Shown here: in pieces, positions 12,114-25,126 of the stretch
Position numbering within the stretch: the stretch's first letter is position 1
Layout of the letters: each line of letters opens with the position of its first letter
Notes under the pieces: generated by a model
The model's database searches: none
The model's input: only the letters and a program-made list of their open reading frames with translations
What the model was told of the DNA's origin: nothing
NCBI GenBank assembly: GCA_965262055.1
Contig: CBDHEI010000002.1
Span: 3,156,347-3,220,346, forward strand
DNA from: Dehalococcoidia bacterium
GTDB taxonomy: Bacteria; Chloroflexota; Dehalococcoidia; Lucifugimonadales; G958296245
Reading direction: 5' to 3'
Length of the DNA: 64,000 bases
Program-made: the position numbers and the translations under genes

Positions 12114-12875
12114 CTATATGCCGGGGAATACCCCGAAGAGGTAGACGACTGTGAAGATGACGATCCACACGATGTCGACGAAATGCCAGTAGAGGGCCGC
12201 CAAGTCGACGTCCAGGTTGCGGGCCGCCGTCACGCCGCCTCGGGTGAACGAGAAGAAGAACAGCGACAGCAGCCAGATTACTCCCAGGGTGACGTGGGCG
12301 CCGTGGAAGCCGGTCAGGGTGAAGAAGGTCGTGCCGAACAGGTTGGTCCGGGGGGTCAGGCCGTGCTGTTCTTCGAACTCGTCGACACCCTCCACGCACC
12401 TGTCTACGAAAGTCTTCTCGTAGTCGGTCAACTCATCGATGGCGTGCTCGTTGGTACGCAGCTCAATGCAGTCCAGGTGCACCTCGTGGTTGGCGAAGTC
12501 CCTGAACTCGAATACCTGGAAGGCCAGGAAGGTCATGCCCATGATGGCGGTGGAGGCGATCCAGATGCGGAAGCCCTTGATGCTCCCGCGGGTGAGTGCG
12601 GAGTAGGCCAGCACCATGCTCATGCTGCTCATCAGCAGGACGAAGGTGCTGACCGACGTGGTCGGGATGCTGAAGACATCCTCGGGGAAGGGGCCGACCT
12701 TGCTCTTGCCGAAGTAGACGACGTAGGTGGCGATAAAGGACCCGAAGAACATGCAGTCCGAGCCCAGAAACGCCCACATAAGGAGCTTCCTGTGGTTCAG
12801 GCCGGTGGTTGTCTCTTCGTGCTCTCCGCCGTGCGCGGCGGCCTCTGCGTGTGCCAAGGGAGGCTCCTGCTCCAT
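12114..12875 (-). CDS. ctaE: cytochrome c oxidase subunit III
   Basis: ORF 12114..13229 was trimmed to the ATG at 12875 (MEQEPP...). That ATG overlaps the ctaD stop as TAATG. FTLTGFHGAHVTLGVIWL is a typical motif. Confidence 0.85.
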   Translation of the reverse strand: MEQEPPLAHAEAAAHGGEHEETTTGLNHRKLLMWAFLGSDCMFFGSFIATYVVYFGKSKVGPFPEDVFSIPTTSVSTFVLLMSSMSMVLAYSALTRGSIKGFRIWIASTAIMGMTFLAFQVFEFRDFANHEVHLDCIELRTNEHAIDELTDYEKTFVDRCVEGVDEFEEQHGLTPRTNLFGTTFFTLTGFHGAHVTLGVIWLLSLFFFSFTRGGVTAARNLDVDLAALYWHFVDIVWIVIFTVVYLFGVFPGI

Positions 12876-14731
12876 TAGTCGTGCCCTTCGTCCGGCTCGT
12901 TCACCGGCTCGAAGGACCATGCGTATATCGAGACGATCGTGATTGCGAGGCCGATGGCGCCGACGATTTTGCCCGCCCAGGTGGCGCTGTATACGAGGCC
13001 GTAGGCTCCTATCAGCAGGCCCGTGGACGCCAAGAGCGGCCAGTATGAGGGCTGCGGAAGGTGTATGCCGTGGCCGTTGTCCTCGGAGGCGCCTGCCACC
13101 GGAACGGTGCTGACCCGCTGACGCTTCTGCATCCAGAACGGGTCTATTCCGTGCACGACGGGGATCTGCTCGAAGTTGTACTCCGGGGGCGGGGAGGGGA
13201 TGGACCACTCCAGGGTCCGTCCGTCCCAAGGATCCGGACCGGCCAGCTCGCCCTTCCTGGCGCTGCGCACCATGTTGATGATGAGCACCAGAATGCCCGC
13301 GGCCAGGACGGCGGAGCCCAGAGAGGAGATGAGGTTCCAGAAGTCCCAGCCCATATCGGAGTCAAATGAGTGGATGCGGCGGGGCATGCCGTCCAGTCCG
13401 ACGAAGTGCATCGGGAAGAAGGTGATGTTCATGCCTATGAACACCAGCCAGAAGTTGAGCTTGCCCATCGCCTCGTTCATGAGGCGTCCGGTGATCTTGG
13501 GGAACCAGTAGTAGGCGCCCGCGGCGATAGCCATGATGCTGCCGCCGAAGAGCACGTAGTGGATGTGGGCGACGATGAAGTAGGTGTCCTGCTGCTGGGC
13601 GTCCGAGGCGGCGGAGGAGTGCATGACGCCGCTCAGGCCGCCGATGATAAACAGGAAGATGAAGCCGATCGCGAAGAGCATCGGGGTCCTCAAGTCTATG
13701 GACCCCTTCCACATCGTGCCTATCCAGTTAAATATCTTGACGCCAGTGGGCACCGCAATGGCCATCGTGCTCAGGGCGAAAACCGAGTTGGCCACAGGGC
13801 CGAGCCCCACGGTGAACATGTGGTGGCTCCAGACCATCCAGCCCATGAAGCCGATGATGACGCCGGACAGGACGACGACGGGATAGCCGAAGAGCGGCTT
13901 GCGGGAGAAGGTTGGGATGATCTCCGAGACTATTCCCATGGCAGGCAGGATCAGGATGTAGACCTCCGGGTGGCCGAAGATCCAGAAGAGGTGCTGCCAG
14001 AGCAGGGGATTGGCGCCGGCTCCGGTGCTAAAGAAGTTCATCCCGAAGAAGCGGTCGAACATCAACTCGATGAGCGCCACCGTTATTACCGGGAAGGCCA
14101 GCACCAGCAGGAAAGAAGTGACGAGGGTCATCCACGTAAAGAGAGGCATCCGCATCAGCGACATGCCCGGGGCGCGCATGTTGACTATCGTCACGATGAA
14201 GTTGAAGGCCGCGGCCAGCGAAGCGATACCCAGCACCTGCAGGCTGACGGCCCAGAAGTCGATGCCGTGGCCTGGGTTGAAGTCGCTGCCCGTGATCGGA
14301 GCGTACCCGAACCAGCCCGCGTTGGGCGCTCCGCCCAAGAACCAGCTCAGCTTGAGGAGGATCGCGCCTGCCAGGAAGGTCCAGTAGCTGAAGGCGTTCA
14401 GACGTGGGAAGGCCACGTCCCTGGCGCCTATCTGCAGCGGTATGACGAAGTTGAAGAACGCTGCTCCTAGGGGCATGACGCCCAGGAAGATCATCGTCGT
14501 GGCGTGCATGGTAAAGAGCTGGTTGAAGACCTCCGGGCTGACGAGGTCCTGCTCCGGCCGGGCGAGCTGGACGCGCATGTACAGCGCCTCCAGGCCTCCT
14601 GTAATGAACAGGATGAACGCCGACACACCGTAGAGGATGCCGATCTTCTTGTGGTCTATGGTAGTCAGCCATGCCATCACCCCCGTGGGGTGGGCCGGCC
14701 TCTTTGGCAGCGGTATAGCGAGCGTAGTCAT
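12875..14731 (-). CDS. ctaD: cytochrome c oxidase subunit I
   Basis: The 618-aa product contains WQHLFWIFGHPEVYILILPAMG and HHMFTVG, which are haem-copper oxidase signatures. Confidence 0.95.
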   Translation of the reverse strand: MTTLAIPLPKRPAHPTGVMAWLTTIDHKKIGILYGVSAFILFITGGLEALYMRVQLARPEQDLVSPEVFNQLFTMHATTMIFLGVMPLGAAFFNFVIPLQIGARDVAFPRLNAFSYWTFLAGAILLKLSWFLGGAPNAGWFGYAPITGSDFNPGHGIDFWAVSLQVLGIASLAAAFNFIVTIVNMRAPGMSLMRMPLFTWMTLVTSFLLVLAFPVITVALIELMFDRFFGMNFFSTGAGANPLLWQHLFWIFGHPEVYILILPAMGIVSEIIPTFSRKPLFGYPVVVLSGVIIGFMGWMVWSHHMFTVGLGPVANSVFALSTMAIAVPTGVKIFNWIGTMWKGSIDLRTPMLFAIGFIFLFIIGGLSGVMHSSAASDAQQQDTYFIVAHIHYVLFGGSIMAIAAGAYYWFPKITGRLMNEAMGKLNFWLVFIGMNITFFPMHFVGLDGMPRRIHSFDSDMGWDFWNLISSLGSAVLAAGILVLIINMVRSARKGELAGPDPWDGRTLEWSIPSPPPEYNFEQIPVVHGIDPFWMQKRQRVSTVPVAGASEDNGHGIHLPQPSYWPLLASTGLLIGAYGLVYSATWAGKIVGAIGLAITIVSIYAWSFEPVNEPDEGHD

Positions 14732-14776
14732 CTTCTGGCTACCTCATTCATTCCTGCTAGTACGTCCAAACGTGGT

Positions 14777-14908
14777 GGAGGAATCCTTCCAGACCTTCCT
14801 TCAGATCCCTTCCTGGACAGGAAGGGTAGAGATTTTGTATGTGAGGGATACCCTCAGACTCCCGGCAAAGGGGCTCCGCCCCTCTGCACACGCCGTATTT
14901 TAGCAGCC
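14777..14908 (-). repeat. copy A of a ~130-145 nt hairpin-rich intercistronic repeat (between ctaC and ctaD)
   Basis: The core gtgagggataccctcagactcccggcaaaggggctccgcccctctgcaca is near-identical to 22132-22180 and 24331-24380. It contains three local hairpins. Confidence 0.8.
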
Positions 14909-14933
14909 TACTAAGATTCGGGCCGCGGCCCGT

Positions 14934-16001
14934 CTACTTTAGCCCCCGCAGATAGGCTACGAGCGCGGAGATATCCGCTTCTGTCAGTTCTCTGGCGGGG
15001 TCGTTGTAGACCTCTGCGTCCCTGGCCATAAGGTTGCCCGGCTTGACGTCGGCGGGATCCTCCAACCACTTGCGCAGATTGGCTTGCGTATTCTCCATAA
15101 TACCGGCGGCGATGTGGCCCCTGCTGGCGACGTGCGTAAGGTTGGGCCCTTGCTCACCCCGGGCTCTCGTTGAGCCCGCCACGGTGTGGCAGGACCAGCA
15201 CCGGGCGTCGCCTTCGAAGAGGTTCTTACCAGCGATTGCGAGCGGGTCGGTGGGGACTGCCGCGTCCTGCGCCTGCGCGGTGAGCCAGGTATCGAACTCC
15301 TCCTGCGGATGGACGATTACCCGGAACCTCATGTTGGCGTGGGCGACTCCGCAGAACTCGGCGCACTGTCCGTAGTACTCGCCGGGCTTCTCGGCCAGGA
15401 TCCACATCGTGTTCGGATGGTTCGGCACGAGGTCGACCTTGCCGGCGATCTTCGGGATCCAGAAGCTGTGCAGCACGTCCTTGGAGTCCAGGTTGATGTT
15501 GATGACCTCGTCGACGGGTATATGGAGCTCGTTCGAGACTACCGTCGTGGCGTCGGAGCCGTCGGGATGGGGATAGTTGAACTCCCACCACCACTGGTGG
15601 CCGACGACATCGATGGTAAGGGAGTCGGGATCCGGGGAGTTAGCGTTGTCGAAGATGGTGGTGACCGTGGGCACCGCGACGACGGCTAGGATGAGCGCCG
15701 GGGCTACTGTCCAGCCTATCTCGAGCGGGGTGTTCCCGTGGGTCTGCTCCGGGTCCGGGTCGCCCGGCTTCCGCCTGAACTTGACCGCCGCGTAGATGAG
15801 GATGCCCTCTACGACTATGAATACGAAGACCGCGGTCCACAGGATCCAGTAGAAGAGGGTTAGCTGCGACCGGGCCACCGGGCCCGTAGTGTCGAAGGTC
15901 GACTGGTTGTGCTCAGGAGTACAGCCTACGGCCAGCAGGACCAACAGCACGGCCAGCACGACGATTGCCAGCCTAGACGAGTAGCGGTCTATCTTCGACA
16001 T
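14934..16001 (-). CDS. ctaC: cytochrome c oxidase subunit II with fused C-terminal cytochrome c domain (caa3-type)
   Basis: The CuA site is HSFWIP...CAEFCGVAHANM. The C-terminal haem-c motif is CWSCH. Confidence 0.9.
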   Translation of the reverse strand: MSKIDRYSSRLAIVVLAVLLVLLAVGCTPEHNQSTFDTTGPVARSQLTLFYWILWTAVFVFIVVEGILIYAAVKFRRKPGDPDPEQTHGNTPLEIGWTVAPALILAVVAVPTVTTIFDNANSPDPDSLTIDVVGHQWWWEFNYPHPDGSDATTVVSNELHIPVDEVININLDSKDVLHSFWIPKIAGKVDLVPNHPNTMWILAEKPGEYYGQCAEFCGVAHANMRFRVIVHPQEEFDTWLTAQAQDAAVPTDPLAIAGKNLFEGDARCWSCHTVAGSTRARGEQGPNLTHVASRGHIAAGIMENTQANLRKWLEDPADVKPGNLMARDAEVYNDPARELTEADISALVAYLRGLK

Positions 16002-20270: not shown

Positions 20271-22046
20271 TCAGCGGCCTCTGAGCCGGGCGGTCTCTTC
20301 GTGGTCGATGGCCAGGCGTCTGTCTACACGCTCTACCCCGACGTCATAGAGGTCTCTGGCTGCCTGCGCTGAAATGAACCCCTGGCTGACGTCGTCCAAC
20401 ACCCTGTTGACCTCGCGCTCGGGGGTGGGGCCAAAGCCTCCGCCGCCCGGGGACTCGATCAGCACCTGGTCCCCCGCCTCGACGACGCAGTTGGCAAACT
20501 TGGCGGCGCTCACCGTGCCGTAGACTTCGGAGAAGGTCCTGAACCTGTCGTCGCCCTTCTTCTTGACGAGCACAGCCGCGTTGCCCCCGGACCCTCCACC
20601 GAACAGCCCCCAAGGGTTGACGCTCACCCGCTCAAAGACCGCGCTGACGGTGATTTTGGCAGGTTCTACAACCTCCAGGACGCGCCGGATCCCGAGACCG
20701 CCACGGTACCGGCCCGGCCCCGCAGAGTCCTGGACGAGCTCGTAGGAGATGGTGCGCCACGGGTAACGGGAGTCGAACACCTCAACGGGTGTGTTGCGGC
20801 AGTTGCCATTGGGTACCACAACAGCGTTGTTGCCGTCCCGGCTGGCGCTTCCGCCCCAGCCGCAGCCCTCGAAGTTGTAGACCACGTAGTACTCTCCGGT
20901 CTCCGGGTGCTCGCCGCCGAACAGGAAGTTGCAGGAGGACCCTCCCTCTGCGGCGGCCACCCGGTCGGGCACCGCCTGGCTGAGGGCGCCTAACACTATG
21001 TCGACGATCCTGGGGTGGGTCTCTGTATTGCCGCCGACCGATGGGCCAGGGTGCTGGACGTTTACCACGCTGCCCGGCGGGGCGATGATCTTGATGGGGC
21101 GGTAGGCGCCCGAGTTGTGCGGAATCTCCTTGTCGGTGGCGTGGAAGATGCCGTTGTAGGTGGCTGAAGCCGTGACCCCGTAGGTGCAGTTGATGATGCC
21201 CTGGGCTTGGGCATCCGAGGCGCTGTAGTCCGCTATGAGCTCGTCTCCCCGTACGACGAGGTTGAGGCGTATCCAGGTCGGGTCGTTGGTTACGCCGTCG
21301 TCCTCTACGCAGTCCTCGAAGTAGTAGTCGCCGTTGGGGATGCGGCGTATCTCCTCCCGCATCCAGCGTTCGGCATGGTCCATGAGCTCCTCGTTGGCCT
21401 GGTTGACGAAGTCGACGCCATACCTGTCCAGCAAGTCTTTCAGGCGCTCCTCGGCAACGTGGAGCGACCCGATCATGGCATGGAAGTCGCCCCAGGTATG
21501 GGAAGGCGTGCGGTGGTTGGTGAGGATCACCTTCCAGACATCTTTGGCATACTCGCCCCGGCGCATGATTTTGACCAGCGGAAGGCGCAGTCCCTCCTGG
21601 TAGACCTCGGTGGCGGTGGCGGCGAACGATCCCGGCGCCATGCCTCCGATCTCGGCGACGTGTCCGATGTTCGCAACGAAGCCGAAGATCTCTCCTTCGT
21701 GGTAGACGGCCTTGATCACGGCGTGCTCCGGCATGTGGCAGCCACCGCGGTACGGGTCGTTGTGAATAACGACGTCGCCCGGCTCGAAGTTCTCCAGCCC
21801 GTACTCCTCGATGGCCCACTTGATGGTGTAGAGGATTGCCCCGAGCTGGGCTGGGCAGAACTCCGCCTGCGCGATCATGTCGCCGTTGCGGTTGAAGATC
21901 ACGCACGAGAAGTCGAGGCCCTCGTTGAAGATGGTCGAGTAGGAGGTCTTCATCATGGCGATACCCATCTCGCGGCAGATGTTGACCAGCTTGTTGTGGA
22001 GTACGCTCAGCGTGACTTGGTCTATGGCGGGTCCGTCGTGCGCGAT
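20271..22046 (-). CDS. hyuB: hydantoinase B / oxoprolinase family protein (HyuB-like); N-terminus extended to a non-canonical ATC start
   Basis: The ORF track starts at 21968 (MGIAMMKTSYSTIFNEGLDFSCVIF). The same frame stays open upstream and encodes the family-typical AHDGPAIDQVTLSVLHNKLVNICRE. AGGAGG lies 6 nt before an ATC at 22046-22044. No ATG, GTG or TTG is available in frame. Confidence 0.7.
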   Translation of the reverse strand: MAHDGPAIDQVTLSVLHNKLVNICREMGIAMMKTSYSTIFNEGLDFSCVIFNRNGDMIAQAEFCPAQLGAILYTIKWAIEEYGLENFEPGDVVIHNDPYRGGCHMPEHAVIKAVYHEGEIFGFVANIGHVAEIGGMAPGSFAATATEVYQEGLRLPLVKIMRRGEYAKDVWKVILTNHRTPSHTWGDFHAMIGSLHVAEERLKDLLDRYGVDFVNQANEELMDHAERWMREEIRRIPNGDYYFEDCVEDDGVTNDPTWIRLNLVVRGDELIADYSASDAQAQGIINCTYGVTASATYNGIFHATDKEIPHNSGAYRPIKIIAPPGSVVNVQHPGPSVGGNTETHPRIVDIVLGALSQAVPDRVAAAEGGSSCNFLFGGEHPETGEYYVVYNFEGCGWGGSASRDGNNAVVVPNGNCRNTPVEVFDSRYPWRTISYELVQDSAGPGRYRGGLGIRRVLEVVEPAKITVSAVFERVSVNPWGLFGGGSGGNAAVLVKKKGDDRFRTFSEVYGTVSAAKFANCVVEAGDQVLIESPGGGGFGPTPEREVNRVLDDVSQGFISAQAARDLYDVGVERVDRRLAIDHEETARLRGR

Positions 22047-22057
22047 GTCTTGCCTCC

Positions 22058-22200
22058 TACCAGGCTGCGGAAGAACACTCCCAGACCTTCCTTCGGGCGC
22101 TCCCCTTTCAGGAAGATAGAAAGAGATTATATCTGAGGGACACCCTCAGACTCCCGGCAAAGGGGCTCTGCCCCTCTGCACTCCCTGTTCTTCAGTAGCC
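22058..22200 (-). repeat. copy B of the hairpin-rich intercistronic repeat (between hyuA and hyuB)
   Basis: ctgagggacaccctcagactcccggcaaaggggctctgcccctctgcac plus shared flanks. The ends form an imperfect inverted repeat (GCTGCGGAAGAACA / TGTTCTTCAGTAGC). Confidence 0.8.
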
Positions 22201-22203
22201 CTC

Positions 22204-24237
22204 CTAGTCTATGATTACTATTCCGCGGTCGGTGACGGTGAGCCGCCTCTCAGCCGGTAGGGCGACGGTCGAGTCGGCGTCGTCGATCACGGCCGGCCCC
22301 TGGATGACGCTGCCCGGCGCAAGCTCGTGCCTGAAGTATACGGGACAGTCCCGGGCGCCTTCCTGGCCCAGGTGTACAGGGCGTAACGCGGGGGTCGCTC
22401 CCTTTCCAGGGGCGCCGCGCCACAGGGGCAGGCGCACCTTCGGGACCGCTCCTATGACGCTGACGTTGAAGTGGATGAGCTCAATTACTTCGCCGGGCAT
22501 CTCGTAGCCGTAGAAGCCCTGGTGCTGGCGATGAAAGCGGCCGAAGACGTCATGGATGGCGGCTTTGGTGATGCGCCCCGGAGGCACCGACACGTCCTGC
22601 TCGTAGTTCTGGCCCATGTAGCGCATGCTGATGGACCGCTGTACGAGCGGCTCGCCGTCGAAGCCCTCAGAGGCAAGGTCCTCAAGCGCGGACATGGTGA
22701 GGGACTCGAAGCGCTCGTCGATTCGGTCTACGTCCAGGGCGTTGGAGCGGTACGCGTGTGTCCACGAGCGGTCGACCCGGAGGTCGGCCACCAGGGTCCC
22801 GAAAGCGGATGCGAGGCCGGCGTTGGGCGGTATGATCACGCGCCCGATGCCGACCGCGTCGGCCAAGGCGACGGCGTGAAGCGGCCCGGCTCCTCCCATG
22901 GCTACCAGATCGAGGTCCCTGGGGTCGATACCGCGCTCCACCGTCACTAGCCTTATGGCGTCGGCCATGTTCTCGTTGGCAAGCCGCACGATAGACAGCG
23001 CGACTTCCTCAACCCCAGTACCCAGTCTCTCGGCCACGCGGCCCAGGGCCTTGACCGCCTTGTCGTGGTCCAGCTTCATGCGGCCGCCCAGGAAGTAGTC
23101 GGGATTGAGCCAGCCGAGCACGAGGTTTGCGTCGGTGACCGTGGCGTCTGTGCCCCCAGCGCCGTAGCAGGCCGGGCCAGGCTCAGCGCCCGCGCTCTGC
23201 GGGCCGACCTTGAGGAAGCCGCCTTTGTCGATCCAGGCGATGGAGCCGCCGCCCGCCCCTATGGTGGTCACGTCGATGAAGGGGGTAGCGACCGGGAGTC
23301 CCCACTCGACCTGGTACTCGGTCGTGAAGCCGTACTCTCCGTCGACAACAAGTCCGACGTCCGTGCTGGTTCCGCCCATGTCCAGCGTTACCACACTGCG
23401 GCTGTCGACCAGATCTCCGAAGTAGCGTCCGGCGATGACTCCACCGGCGAGACCTGACAGGAGAAGCTGAACGGGATATTCACGGGCGGAAGCGGCGACC
23501 ATCTGGCCACCGTTGGACTTCATCAGCTGAAGCGGCACCTTCAGGCCCCGTTCCTTGAGACCCGCGTCGACATCGCCCGCAAAGCCGGCCACAAGGTGCT
23601 TGACGTAGGCGTCGGCCAGGGTAGTGGTGCCACGCTCGTACTCTCTCCACACGGGGGCGACGCGGTGGGAGAGCGACACGGGCAGGTGCGGGAACTCGTC
23701 CCGGAGGAATTGGCCTAGCCTCTGTTCGTGCTCGTGATGGGCATAGCTGAACAGGAGGTTGACGGCTAGGGCAATGGGGCCCTGCGTTTCGGCCACGCGG
23801 ATACGAACGACGGAGGCGATGCGCGCGAGCTCGGCGTCCGCGAGCGGGGCCAGGACACTCCCGTCTTTGGATATGCGCTCGTTTACCCCGATGCAGTCCC
23901 GGCGCTGGGCGAAGGGGGCGGGTTTGATCCAGGAGAGGTCGTAGTGGTGGCGACGGTTTATGCGCTGGATGAAGGGGACATCTTCGAACCCCTTCGTGGT
24001 CAGGTAGAGCACCCTCGCGCCCGACCTCTGGTGGAGGGCGTTGATGGCTATGGTTGTCCCGAGGACGAGGTAGGAGATGCCTTCCGGGCCTATGCCCGAG
24101 GCCTCCAACGCGTCGAATACGCCCTCATGGGGGACTCGCGGCGTCGATGGCCGCTTGGCGACCAGTATCTGGTCACCATCGTGGTCGATGGCCACCAGGT
24201 CGGTGAAGGTGCCTCCCGTGTCGATTCCCACACGCAT
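22204..24237 (-). CDS. hyuA: hydantoinase A / oxoprolinase family protein (HyuA-like, ATP-dependent)
   Basis: MRVGIDTGGTFTDLVAIDHDG... is the actin-like ATPase N-terminus. ORF 22204..24282 was trimmed to the ATG at 24237 because the 15 upstream codons fall inside repeat copy C. Confidence 0.85.
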   Translation of the reverse strand: MRVGIDTGGTFTDLVAIDHDGDQILVAKRPSTPRVPHEGVFDALEASGIGPEGISYLVLGTTIAINALHQRSGARVLYLTTKGFEDVPFIQRINRRHHYDLSWIKPAPFAQRRDCIGVNERISKDGSVLAPLADAELARIASVVRIRVAETQGPIALAVNLLFSYAHHEHEQRLGQFLRDEFPHLPVSLSHRVAPVWREYERGTTTLADAYVKHLVAGFAGDVDAGLKERGLKVPLQLMKSNGGQMVAASAREYPVQLLLSGLAGGVIAGRYFGDLVDSRSVVTLDMGGTSTDVGLVVDGEYGFTTEYQVEWGLPVATPFIDVTTIGAGGGSIAWIDKGGFLKVGPQSAGAEPGPACYGAGGTDATVTDANLVLGWLNPDYFLGGRMKLDHDKAVKALGRVAERLGTGVEEVALSIVRLANENMADAIRLVTVERGIDPRDLDLVAMGGAGPLHAVALADAVGIGRVIIPPNAGLASAFGTLVADLRVDRSWTHAYRSNALDVDRIDERFESLTMSALEDLASEGFDGEPLVQRSISMRYMGQNYEQDVSVPPGRITKAAIHDVFGRFHRQHQGFYGYEMPGEVIELIHFNVSVIGAVPKVRLPLWRGAPGKGATPALRPVHLGQEGARDCPVYFRHELAPGSVIQGPAVIDDADSTVALPAERRLTVTDRGIVIID

Positions 24238-24255
24238 GACATGACCGCCTAGACC

Positions 24256-24398
24256 CACCAGGCTGAGGAAGAACTCTTCCACATCTTCTTCTGGGCTCTT
24301 CCCTGTTCCCAGGGAAGAGAGGAATTATATCTGAGGGACACCCTCAGACTCCCGGCAAAGAGGCTTCGCCCCTCTGCACACCCCGTTTTTCAGCAGCA
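24256..24398 (-). repeat. copy C of the hairpin-rich intercistronic repeat (between the P-loop-like gene and hyuA)
   Basis: ctgagggacaccctcagactcccggcaaagaggcttcgcccctctgcac, plus a perfect 10-bp hairpin CTCTTCCCTG-ttcc-CAGGGAAGAG (24296-24319). Confidence 0.8.
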
Positions 24399-24400
24399 CC

Positions 24401-25126
24401 TTAAGTTTGGCTGCGGCACTTGTGCCGCTCGCGCCTTTCGGTGTCGTCGGACGAGAGTAACGGCTGGATCTTACCGGCGAACTCTGCCAGCGTTTCTTCC
24501 ACCGTGGCGGAGGTGGTGTCCAGAGAGAAGCGGTTAGGGATGGTTGACCGCTCATACTCCTCTCGGAACCTGTTCAGGACGTGCTCAACGTCGGCTTCCA
24601 GGACGACCTGCCGGGGATGCGGGTCTGCCTTCATCCGGCTGCGTATCGTGTCTGGAGATGCCTCCATGAGCACGAGGACGAAGTCGGGCGCTGCCTCCAG
24701 TAGGGCCCTCTCGACAGTCTTCTTGACGATGCTGCGGGCGCCGGGCTGGCCATCGGCCCCGTAGTAGAAGTAGAGCGGGCCGTAGACTGAGTCCTCGATG
24801 TGCATTCCGACGGCCAGGTAGTCCGAGTAGAAGCCCTGCTCCTCCTCGTGGCCCTTCCTGAACGCGCCGGGCTGTATGTGGTAGTAGAGGCTGTGGCGCT
24901 GCATCTGCTCCTTGACCTTCGGCGCCAGGGCGAGAAGGCCTTCCTGCTCATCCTCGGCCATGAAGCTGTCGGTGTCGATGGGCCAGTGGCCGGTGACGTT
25001 GGGAATCTTCCAGTGGTCGTGGAAGAGGCCGAAGTCGGCGCCCATCTGCTCGGCGCCCCAGCGGTATATCTCCTTGGCGAGGGTCGTAGTGCCGACGTAC
25101 TCGCATCCGACGAGCAGTATCCTCAT
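24401..25126 (-). CDS. P-loop NTPase-like protein with degenerate Walker A
   Basis: MRILLVGCEYVGTTTLAKEIY has GxxxxGTT in place of GxxxxGK[ST]. The ATG at 25126 overlaps the upstream stop as ATGA. Confidence 0.5.
   Translation of the reverse strand: MRILLVGCEYVGTTTLAKEIYRWGAEQMGADFGLFHDHWKIPNVTGHWPIDTDSFMAEDEQEGLLALAPKVKEQMQRHSLYYHIQPGAFRKGHEEEQGFYSDYLAVGMHIEDSVYGPLYFYYGADGQPGARSIVKKTVERALLEAAPDFVLVLMEASPDTIRSRMKADPHPRQVVLEADVEHVLNRFREEYERSTIPNRFSLDTTSATVEETLAEFAGKIQPLLSSDDTERRERHKCRSQT

Follow-up and report, generated by a model that had tools for sequence, protein, structure and literature searches.

An apparently undescribed repeat family, probably of MITE type, at operon junctions of Dehalococcoidia

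Short mobile repeats of bacterial genomes provide the closest described counterparts of the sequence family examined here. Correia/NEMIS elements (Neisseria), ERIC (Enterobacteria, Yersinia), RUP and BOX (Streptococcus pneumoniae) are 100-200 nt long, non-coding and bounded by terminal inverted repeats; they occur in tens of copies or more per genome and are inserted beside or between genes, with which they are co-transcribed. BOX elements additionally have a modular build with nested inserts. Correia elements duplicate TA, while a YTAR target with a 4-nt duplication, mostly at CTAG or CTAA, is the pattern of insertion sequences of the IS5 group (IS5 family, DDE transposase). A separate class, REP/BIME/REPIN, comprises short extragenic palindromes that often lie between co-transcribed genes and are proposed to stabilise mRNA. 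REPs measure 20-40 nt, carry a GTAG or CGTC head, are associated with RAYT proteins, and have neither inverted-repeat ends nor duplications, whereas elements of the Correia kind in general form stable hairpins through which mRNA can be stabilised or destabilised (PMC3733652).

The family was encountered in a 64,000-nt stretch of DNA from a Dehalococcoidia bacterium (hereafter, the window), in which an initial annotation made from the sequence had described three copies of a hairpin-rich intercistronic repeat and compared them with Correia, ERIC and REP/BIME elements. The first part of this comparison holds, Correia and ERIC elements being themselves MITEs: the repeat shares with them, and with RUP and BOX, its size, non-coding nature, inverted-repeat ends, copy number and position beside or between genes, and with BOX its modular build and nested inserts. 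Co-transcription, which had been anticipated, is presumed from the sense position of copies inside operons. The likeness to REP/BIME does not hold, since the unit is ~150 nt long, has inverted-repeat ends and duplications, and lacks a GTAG/CGTC head. Unlike all the Correia-type families, the repeat is hosted by a clade of uncultured Dehalococcoidia and is most conserved in an asymmetric internal double hairpin rather than in its inverted repeats; unlike Correia, it is flanked by a 4-nt YTAR duplication. This duplication pattern alone makes it similar to the IS5 group, from which it differs in that the sampled loci contain no transposase gene or full-length element with these ends.

A repeat search of the window recovered three copies of one family, at 14764-14907 (copy A), 22056-22199 (copy B) and 24254-24397 (copy C), and the 20-mer CCCTCAGACTCCCGGCAAAG of their core occurs exactly three times in the window, on one strand, versus 0.01 expected from shuffles; the three-copy repeat is thereby confirmed. 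With the flanking 4-mers included, the copies span approximately 14757-14914, 22057-22207 and 24255-24404, so that the boundaries first drawn were right in place and a few bases short. Each copy lies between two co-directional genes, and because the flanking ORFs are all on the minus strand, the three copies share the sense orientation relative to transcription, as had been stated. Gene names correspond to Pfam families assigned through the orthologous locus L114 or through orthology with annotated assemblies. The features are listed below in the direction of transcription.

24401-~25126, minus: gene without a Pfam hit, upstream of copy C
24401-24404, minus: TTAA of copy C, the TAA serving as stop codon for the gene upstream
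24355-24377, 24331-24347 and 24296-24319, minus: P1, P2 and H1 of copy C, the left end of which is altered
at 24259, minus: end of the right inverted repeat of copy C, ...CAGCCTG
22204-24237, minus: hyuA, between copies C and B
22057-22207, minus: copy B, a complete element (body 22061-22203)
22204-22207, minus: CTAG of copy B, whose TAG is the hyuA stop codon
22157-22179 and 22133-22149, minus: P1 and P2 of copy B, within the body
22057-22060, minus: GTAG of copy B, followed directly by the hyuB ribosome-binding site GAGG
20271-22046, minus: hyuB, downstream of copy B
14934-16001, minus: ctaC (COX2 with cytochrome c domain), upstream of copy A; ORF, with Pfam by orthology
14911-14914, minus: TTAG, 5' flanking 4-mer of copy A and candidate target-site duplication, fitting the YTAR flanks of the family
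14896-14910, minus: left terminal inverted repeat of copy A, TAGGCTGCTAAAATA (family consensus CAGGCTGMTGAAAAA), from alignment to 80 members
14841-14887, minus: conserved core of copy A (P1, linker and P2), from coordinates and predicted fold
14865-14887, minus: P1 hairpin of copy A (H3 of the initial annotation), 10 bp, loop GGA; predicted fold
14858-14864, minus: linker CGGGAGU, between P1 and P2
14841-14857, minus: P2 hairpin of copy A (formerly H2), loop UAU, closing pair C.C; predicted fold
14807-14826, minus: variable hairpin H1 of copy A, CCCTTCC-tgtcca-GGAAGGG; predicted fold
14757-14806, minus: purine-rich right part of copy A with a degenerate right inverted repeat; the profile match stops at 14775
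14757-14760, minus: CTAG, candidate 3' duplication of copy A, the exact right end being uncertain
12875-14731, minus: ctaD (COX1), downstream of copy A; ORF, with Pfam by orthology

The nhmmer match of copy A covers model positions 2-140 (window 14913-14775); its right end and the left end of copy C are degenerate. The hairpins originally named H1, H2 and H3 are present, and sense-strand folding recovered P1, P2 and H1 in all three copies, with energies of -55.9, -68.5 and -65.2 kcal/mol for A, B and C (z = -1.6, -3.2 and -3.7).

Several additional features are found next to the copies. A perfect 12-nt palindrome, GGGCCGCGGCCC (14921-14932), lies outside the element, after the ctaC stop codon and before copy A begins, and gives a terminator-like call on the plus (antisense) strand only. 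Directly 3' of copy A and overlapping the ctaD ribosome-binding site, the sequence CTAGCAGGAATGAATGAGG (14742-14760) resembles the left end (CTAG+CAGGCTGATGAA...) of another copy and may be a remnant or a chance match. The longest hyuA ORF (GTG at 24282) extends 45 nt into copy C (24238-24282); the conserved HyuA N-terminus, MRVGIDTGGTF, begins at ATG 24237, and public 692-aa gene calls carry a spurious extension. The hyuB start (22044-22046, minus) reads ATC, the aligned position being ATG in L240, L114, L109 and L110. The hyuB frame is otherwise intact (591 aa), its first 26 codons include no ATG, GTG or TTG, and the ATC reflects a start-codon mutation specific to the strain or else an error of assembly.

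Beyond the window, a genome scan for exact matches to the core 20-mer returned at least 106 stretches, all from Dehalococcoidia/Chloroflexota genomes assembled from metagenomes of groundwater, lake, spring and other samples. They represent at least 34 species-level genomes, and a single genome gives at least 22 of the stretches listed. A profile built from 16 full copies produced 190 matches in 0.89 Mb of family-bearing sequence, corresponding to 149 independent sites, 14 of which are tandem arrays. Comparison of flanks revealed almost no orthologous redundancy, the sole orthologous trio among the 106 being the arrays of L030, L053 and L088. These consist of truncated elements in ~155-nt units (L053:4439-4856, three units; L030:2995-3254, two; L088:49-499, three) at an orthologous junction between the same two co-directional genes in three genomes, so that the number of units varies between species.

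The element has a ~142-nt body, measures ~150 nt overall and is non-coding: no ORF is confined to it, and those crossing it either extend flanking genes or are antisense artefacts. Aligned over 80 copies, the consensus reads CTAG, then CAGGCTGATGAAAAA TGGGG TGTGCAGAGGGGCGAAGCCCCTTTGCCGGGAGTCTGAGGGTGTCCCTCAGA TATAATTTCTT CCCCCTTCCTGGCCAGGAAGGGGG CCAGGGGGATGGTCGAAAGGG TTTTTCAGCACCCTG, then CTAG. Its termini are imperfect inverted repeats of ~15 nt (CAGGCTGMTGAAAAA ... TTTTTCAGCMCCCTG in the same alignment), and two subfamilies carry matched left and right variants; the second, which includes the window copies, pairs CAGGCTGCKGAAGAA with TTCTTCCGCAGCCTG. Internally, a 57-nt core (P1 of 10 bp with one G.U pair, the linker CGGGAGU and P2 of 7 bp) is followed by the variable hairpin H1 and the purine-rich right part. 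At gathering thresholds, an Rfam scan of the window yielded only a tRNA elsewhere, with no family reaching threshold on the element, and a scan of three 8-kb loci at E <= 1 placed nothing on it. BLAST searches of plasmid and phage collections with the consensus found nothing, and a literature search found no paper linking MITEs with Dehalococcoidia. The sequence that the initial annotation did not recognise is a genuine repeat family absent from Rfam, apparently a previously undescribed family of a known type of element, the MITE.

Evidence for insertion comes from the flanks and from empty sites. The YTAR 4-mers flanking full copies are identical direct repeats in 26 of 56 cases, versus 16.2 expected (permutation p = 0.00017); identical pairs other than CTAG number 10 versus 2.2 expected (CTAA/CTAA six times, TTAG/TTAG three times, CTAT/CTAT once). 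Filled and empty alleles were identified at three junctions, with a single 4-mer at the empty sites. Between hyuA and hyuB, the relatives L109 and L110 (HyuA 87-88% identical) have no element and the genes are 9 nt apart; their empty site reads gagTAGgaggcaaacATG and carries a single (G)TAG, the target being GTAG. The same junction is filled in the window, L114 and L240, where copy B of L240 is identical to that of the window, and reads ...GACTAG-(143 nt)-GTAGGAGGCAAGACATC in the window, or CTAG-(143 nt)-GTAGGAGG in short form. From this contrast it follows that the hyuA stop codon was the insertion point of copy B: of the two (N)TAG repeats, one still terminates hyuA, and the ribosome-binding site of hyuB directly adjoins the other.

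The other junctions behave similarly. The copy C site upstream of hyuA is a 32-nt spacer in L109 and L110. L109 has its own copy, flanked by CTAA/CTAA, at the neighbouring junction, which is empty in L114 and L110 (single CTAA or CTTA). The ctaC-ctaD spacer is 71 nt in the more distant L112 and L113 (CtaD 82-84% identical) versus 202 nt in the window; the element is not conserved at orthologous junctions in more distant relatives. The window insertions are common to the close strains L114, L115 and L240; copies A-C therefore arose in the window lineage after the split from L109/L110. The reading as a conserved operon feature was rejected, the atpG-atpD copy of L084 being absent from all 80 related atpD loci.

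At copy C, the window and L240 are without a ~996-nt gene (Pfam FAA_hydrolase) that in L114 (1016-2011), L109 and L110 separates hyuA from the unnamed gene upstream. The copy lies exactly at the junction of this ~1-kb deletion (window 24398-24410), the start of its left inverted repeat is altered, and the left breakpoint is the CTAA/TTAA site used by the independent L109 insertion. This arrangement suggests that the loss of the gene is associated with the element.

We read the family as a MITE, with a probability of roughly 0.88: a non-coding element of ~142 nt with inverted-repeat ends and 4-nt YTAR duplications. It displays traits of such elements, namely small non-coding size, terminal inverted repeats, a target-site duplication, and dispersed copies with presence/absence polymorphism. 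Judging by the duplication pattern alone, a DDE transposase supplied in trans most likely moves the element, which would integrate at NTAR/YTAR tetranucleotides that become duplicated. A search of 109 loci (0.89 Mb), covering solitary ends and the intervals between inverted-repeat pairs spaced 0.6-3 kb, found no autonomous element with matching ends and a transposase. Copies A-C would be lineage-specific insertions in the cta and hyu operons, presumably transcribed passively, with the RNA predicted to form a closing stem and three hairpins; our verdict is that they are recent passive insertions at operon junctions.

The genomic distribution of the copies bears on this reading. Between co-directional genes, 57 sites are sense and 20 antisense (binomial p = 3e-5), and 20 and 14 further sites occupy convergent and divergent spacers, respectively. 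In tight spacers, where both neighbour genes lie within 120 nt, the sense:antisense ratio is 40:7, the seven antisense copies being genuinely present in operon-like spacers (e.g., L067:2232-2378). In ~20% of co-directional sites, whichever the orientation, the upstream gene ends on the flanking 4-mer, which supplies its stop codon. YTAR has a density of 2.0 per kb inside genes versus 7.7 per kb outside, about four times rarer inside. Because YTAR contains TAA/TAG and is rarer within genes, insertions gather at gene ends and short spacers, often on a stop codon, and the intercistronic habit follows from target availability together with selection against gene disruption. One full copy, at L063:3597-3748, is located ~200 nt upstream of a T-box leader (Rfam RF00230, 123 bits; L063:3953-4177) on the same strand.

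These data also bear on the functional proposal made by the initial annotation, which envisaged a dedicated RNA processing, stability or translation-coupling signal and named, as the opposite outcome, a plain MITE with copies in both orientations and target-site duplications. Copies do occur in both orientations and in convergent and divergent spacers, duplications are present, and the element is missing from the same junctions in relatives; on these grounds, the hypothesis of a dedicated signal is not supported and fails the refutation tests set for it. The sense bias, both overall and in tight spacers, is not expected of a plain MITE given its largely palindromic target, and the excess in operons is best read as post-insertion selection. 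With 52 G and 35 C in the consensus, and similar values in copies B and C, the sense strand is rich in G and the antisense transcript consequently C-rich; such a transcript might be more polar, through a Rho loading site or pairing with a ribosome-binding site, and hence be selected out.

Conservation is higher in the internal core than in the inverted repeats, which is unusual for a MITE. Outside the search 20-mer, it is 92-94% identical to the consensus (69 copies) versus 71-79% for the inverted repeats, and in unseeded copies, which are those without the 20-mer, the values are 80-84% versus 72-75%. The hairpins are maintained: in 80 copies the named structure is 93.9% paired, and 13 pairs show two-sided changes versus 5.0 in shuffles, with 0 of 500 shuffles reaching 13 and slid controls giving 6-11. 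Nine of these 13 pairs belong to H1, in which 9 of 10 pairs are changed on both sides, and H1 is a hairpin of quite different sequence from subfamily to subfamily; the early observation that it varies with pairing kept was therefore sound. In the core, double changes are few and tied to particular subfamilies: P2 A-U to G-C (8 copies), P1 G-C to C-G (5 copies), and C-G to U-A. Covariation in the core is modest and reflects few independent events, and the double changes of the whole structure likewise come from few subfamilies. Predicted folds of the sense RNA are 6-12 kcal/mol more stable than those of the antisense. In P1 and P2 of seeded copies, G-U exceeds A-C toward the sense strand, falling to ~27:19 in unseeded copies; the excess is mostly one fixed wobble pair plus positions left free by the search 20-mer.

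The core also occurs by itself and in other arrangements. About 60 matches are cores without recognisable ends, some in tandem arrays of 141-186 nt, and some core-only copies lie directly upstream of the housekeeping genes atpD (L084), tpiA (L040) and aroK (L085). In the diverged orthologous pair formed by copy B of the window and copy B of L114, the core is identical at 59 of 59 positions, the adjacent parts and coding flanks at ~80%. A second repeat type has the common P1-P2 core followed by a different module of ~130 nt (GGGYGGGAYGGTGGGAACCACCAACCT...), in tandem arrays of ~186 nt (L064:1838-2474, L101:4406-5528, L063:1735-1825, L028:4041-4111); it has no Rfam match, and a tRNA-like reading was discarded since ARAGORN detected no tRNA in it.

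A ~24-nt insert, CCTGYCCTGAGCNNGYCGAAGG (22-26 nt), is present in copy B of L114, copy C of L240 and the L109 copy, and not in window copies B and C or copy C of L114. Its sites include L114:4267-4288, L240 copy C, L109:1890-1913, L004:2206, L006:5617, L049:569 and L077:1887, in at least three different positions within copies (P2, the H1 loop, P1), and in close strains some orthologous copies have it while others lack it. It may be a tiny mobile sequence nested in the copies, or else a variant that exchange between copies has spread; that it differs among orthologs and recurs in unrelated copies suggests the latter process, by which the core could be homogenised without selection.

One alternative treats the MITE as a vehicle: the 57-nt core would act in cis in operon transcripts, as an exonuclease barrier or a ribonuclease entry site, and would set the ratio of upstream to downstream cistron, with selection keeping both the core and its sense orientation. 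It would account for the core being the best-conserved part of the element, for stems that are kept while loops are free to vary, and for the conserved G.U pair of P1 on the sense strand only. The pairing-preserving double changes in P1 and P2, the excess of double-changed pairs over shuffles, the better sense fold and the sense bias are likewise in line with it, as are the perfect core identity of the diverged copy B pair and the many core-only copies. The insertions are, however, lineage-specific and missing at the same junctions both in relatives with 82-88% protein identity and in the 80 atpD loci, and antisense copies persist in tight operon-like spacers. The G-U:A-C excess is gone in unseeded copies and stems partly, in seeded ones, from positions free to vary; the compensatory changes come from few subfamilies, hence few events; and the shared insert points to exchange that could homogenise the core without selection. 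We regard this alternative as unlikely. Within the MITE reading, conservation of the P1-P2 core is probably due to a requirement of propagation, or to exchange between copies, rather than to a function that individual sites perform for the host; a subterminal site required by the transposase is a further explanation.

The sole recurring Rfam resemblance concerns RF02937 Clostridiales-2, always on the sense strand and over P1 and its flanks, with best scores of 22.9, 19.4 and 18.2 bits versus a gathering score of 58.6. Clostridiales-2 is a candidate sRNA known from comparative genomics in a phylum different from that of the hosts of the element. Its consensus, ...AAAauaGGGggUGcaGgGGg-loop-cCCcCugCCG...GAGGGUG...GUCGAAGGGAA, is collinear in three blocks with GAAAAAUGGGGUGUGCAGAGGGGC-GAA-GCCCCUUUGCCG..GAGGGUG...GGUCGAAAGGG of the element, and BLAST of the Clostridiales-2-like consensus against plasmids gave one match only, at chance level. 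This sequence likeness is a lead and would not amount to membership. In a broader form of the vehicle idea, the P1-CGGGAGU-P2 core would be a selected cis-acting RNA module tuning cistron stability or translation, spread by MITEs and at least one other repeat type and possibly a distant relative of Clostridiales-2. Given the conserved core, the sense bias and the likeness to Clostridiales-2, there is a modest chance that the core is a selected RNA module; we hold this broader form to be improbable.

Movement as single strands by a tyrosine HUH transposase (RAYT or IS200/IS605 TnpA), in the manner of REP/BIME-like or PATE-like elements, with the orientation bias arising from replication direction, might explain hairpin-rich and asymmetric elements, their strand bias relative to genes and the tandem arrays. 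It is very improbable, because the two ends are inverted repeats of each other and the flanking 4-mers co-vary as true duplications that are single at empty sites, whereas IS200/IS605-type elements make none. The GTAG or CGTC head described for REPs (PMC3733652) is also lacking. On the complete chromosome OZ250142.1, moreover, the two orientations are interleaved, which, in a small sample, argues against a simple replication-strand rule.

Equally remote is the idea that every copy is a small-RNA gene in its own right, equipped with a promoter and a terminator and related to Clostridiales-2: the repeated sense-strand matches across P1 and the adjoining sequence (18-23 bits, E = 0.002-0.04 in ~200-nt searches) and a TATAAT-like hexamer after P2 in copies B and C speak for it, but the scores are far below the gathering score, the copies contain no promoter-like hexamer pair and no sense-strand terminator, they lie 0-50 nt from flanking cistrons inside operons, and viral contigs picked by a P1-like pattern (44 stretches, mostly phage coding sequence) include none that the family profile matches. 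The promoter reading was itself rejected, as the hexamer has no -35 partner at 16-18 nt and the copies contain no promoter-like (sigma-70-like) sites.

For annotation, these MITEs matter because they lengthen ORFs and hide true start codons, as in the hyuA ORF that starts within copy C. They split tightly coupled gene pairs and mark recent rearrangements, such as the ~1-kb deletion at copy C with the loss of the FAA_hydrolase-family gene, and the family shows that transposons have recently been active in a class that is uncultured and widespread in the environment. Close relatives that have or lack the element at the same operon junction constitute a natural experiment on a 150-nt structured intercistronic insert. 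If the greater conservation of the core than of the ends and the sense bias truly result from selection on the RNA, the family would regulate operon expression as a mobile element; and if the core is indeed a selected module related to Clostridiales-2, it would be a mobile operon-tuning element shared across phyla.
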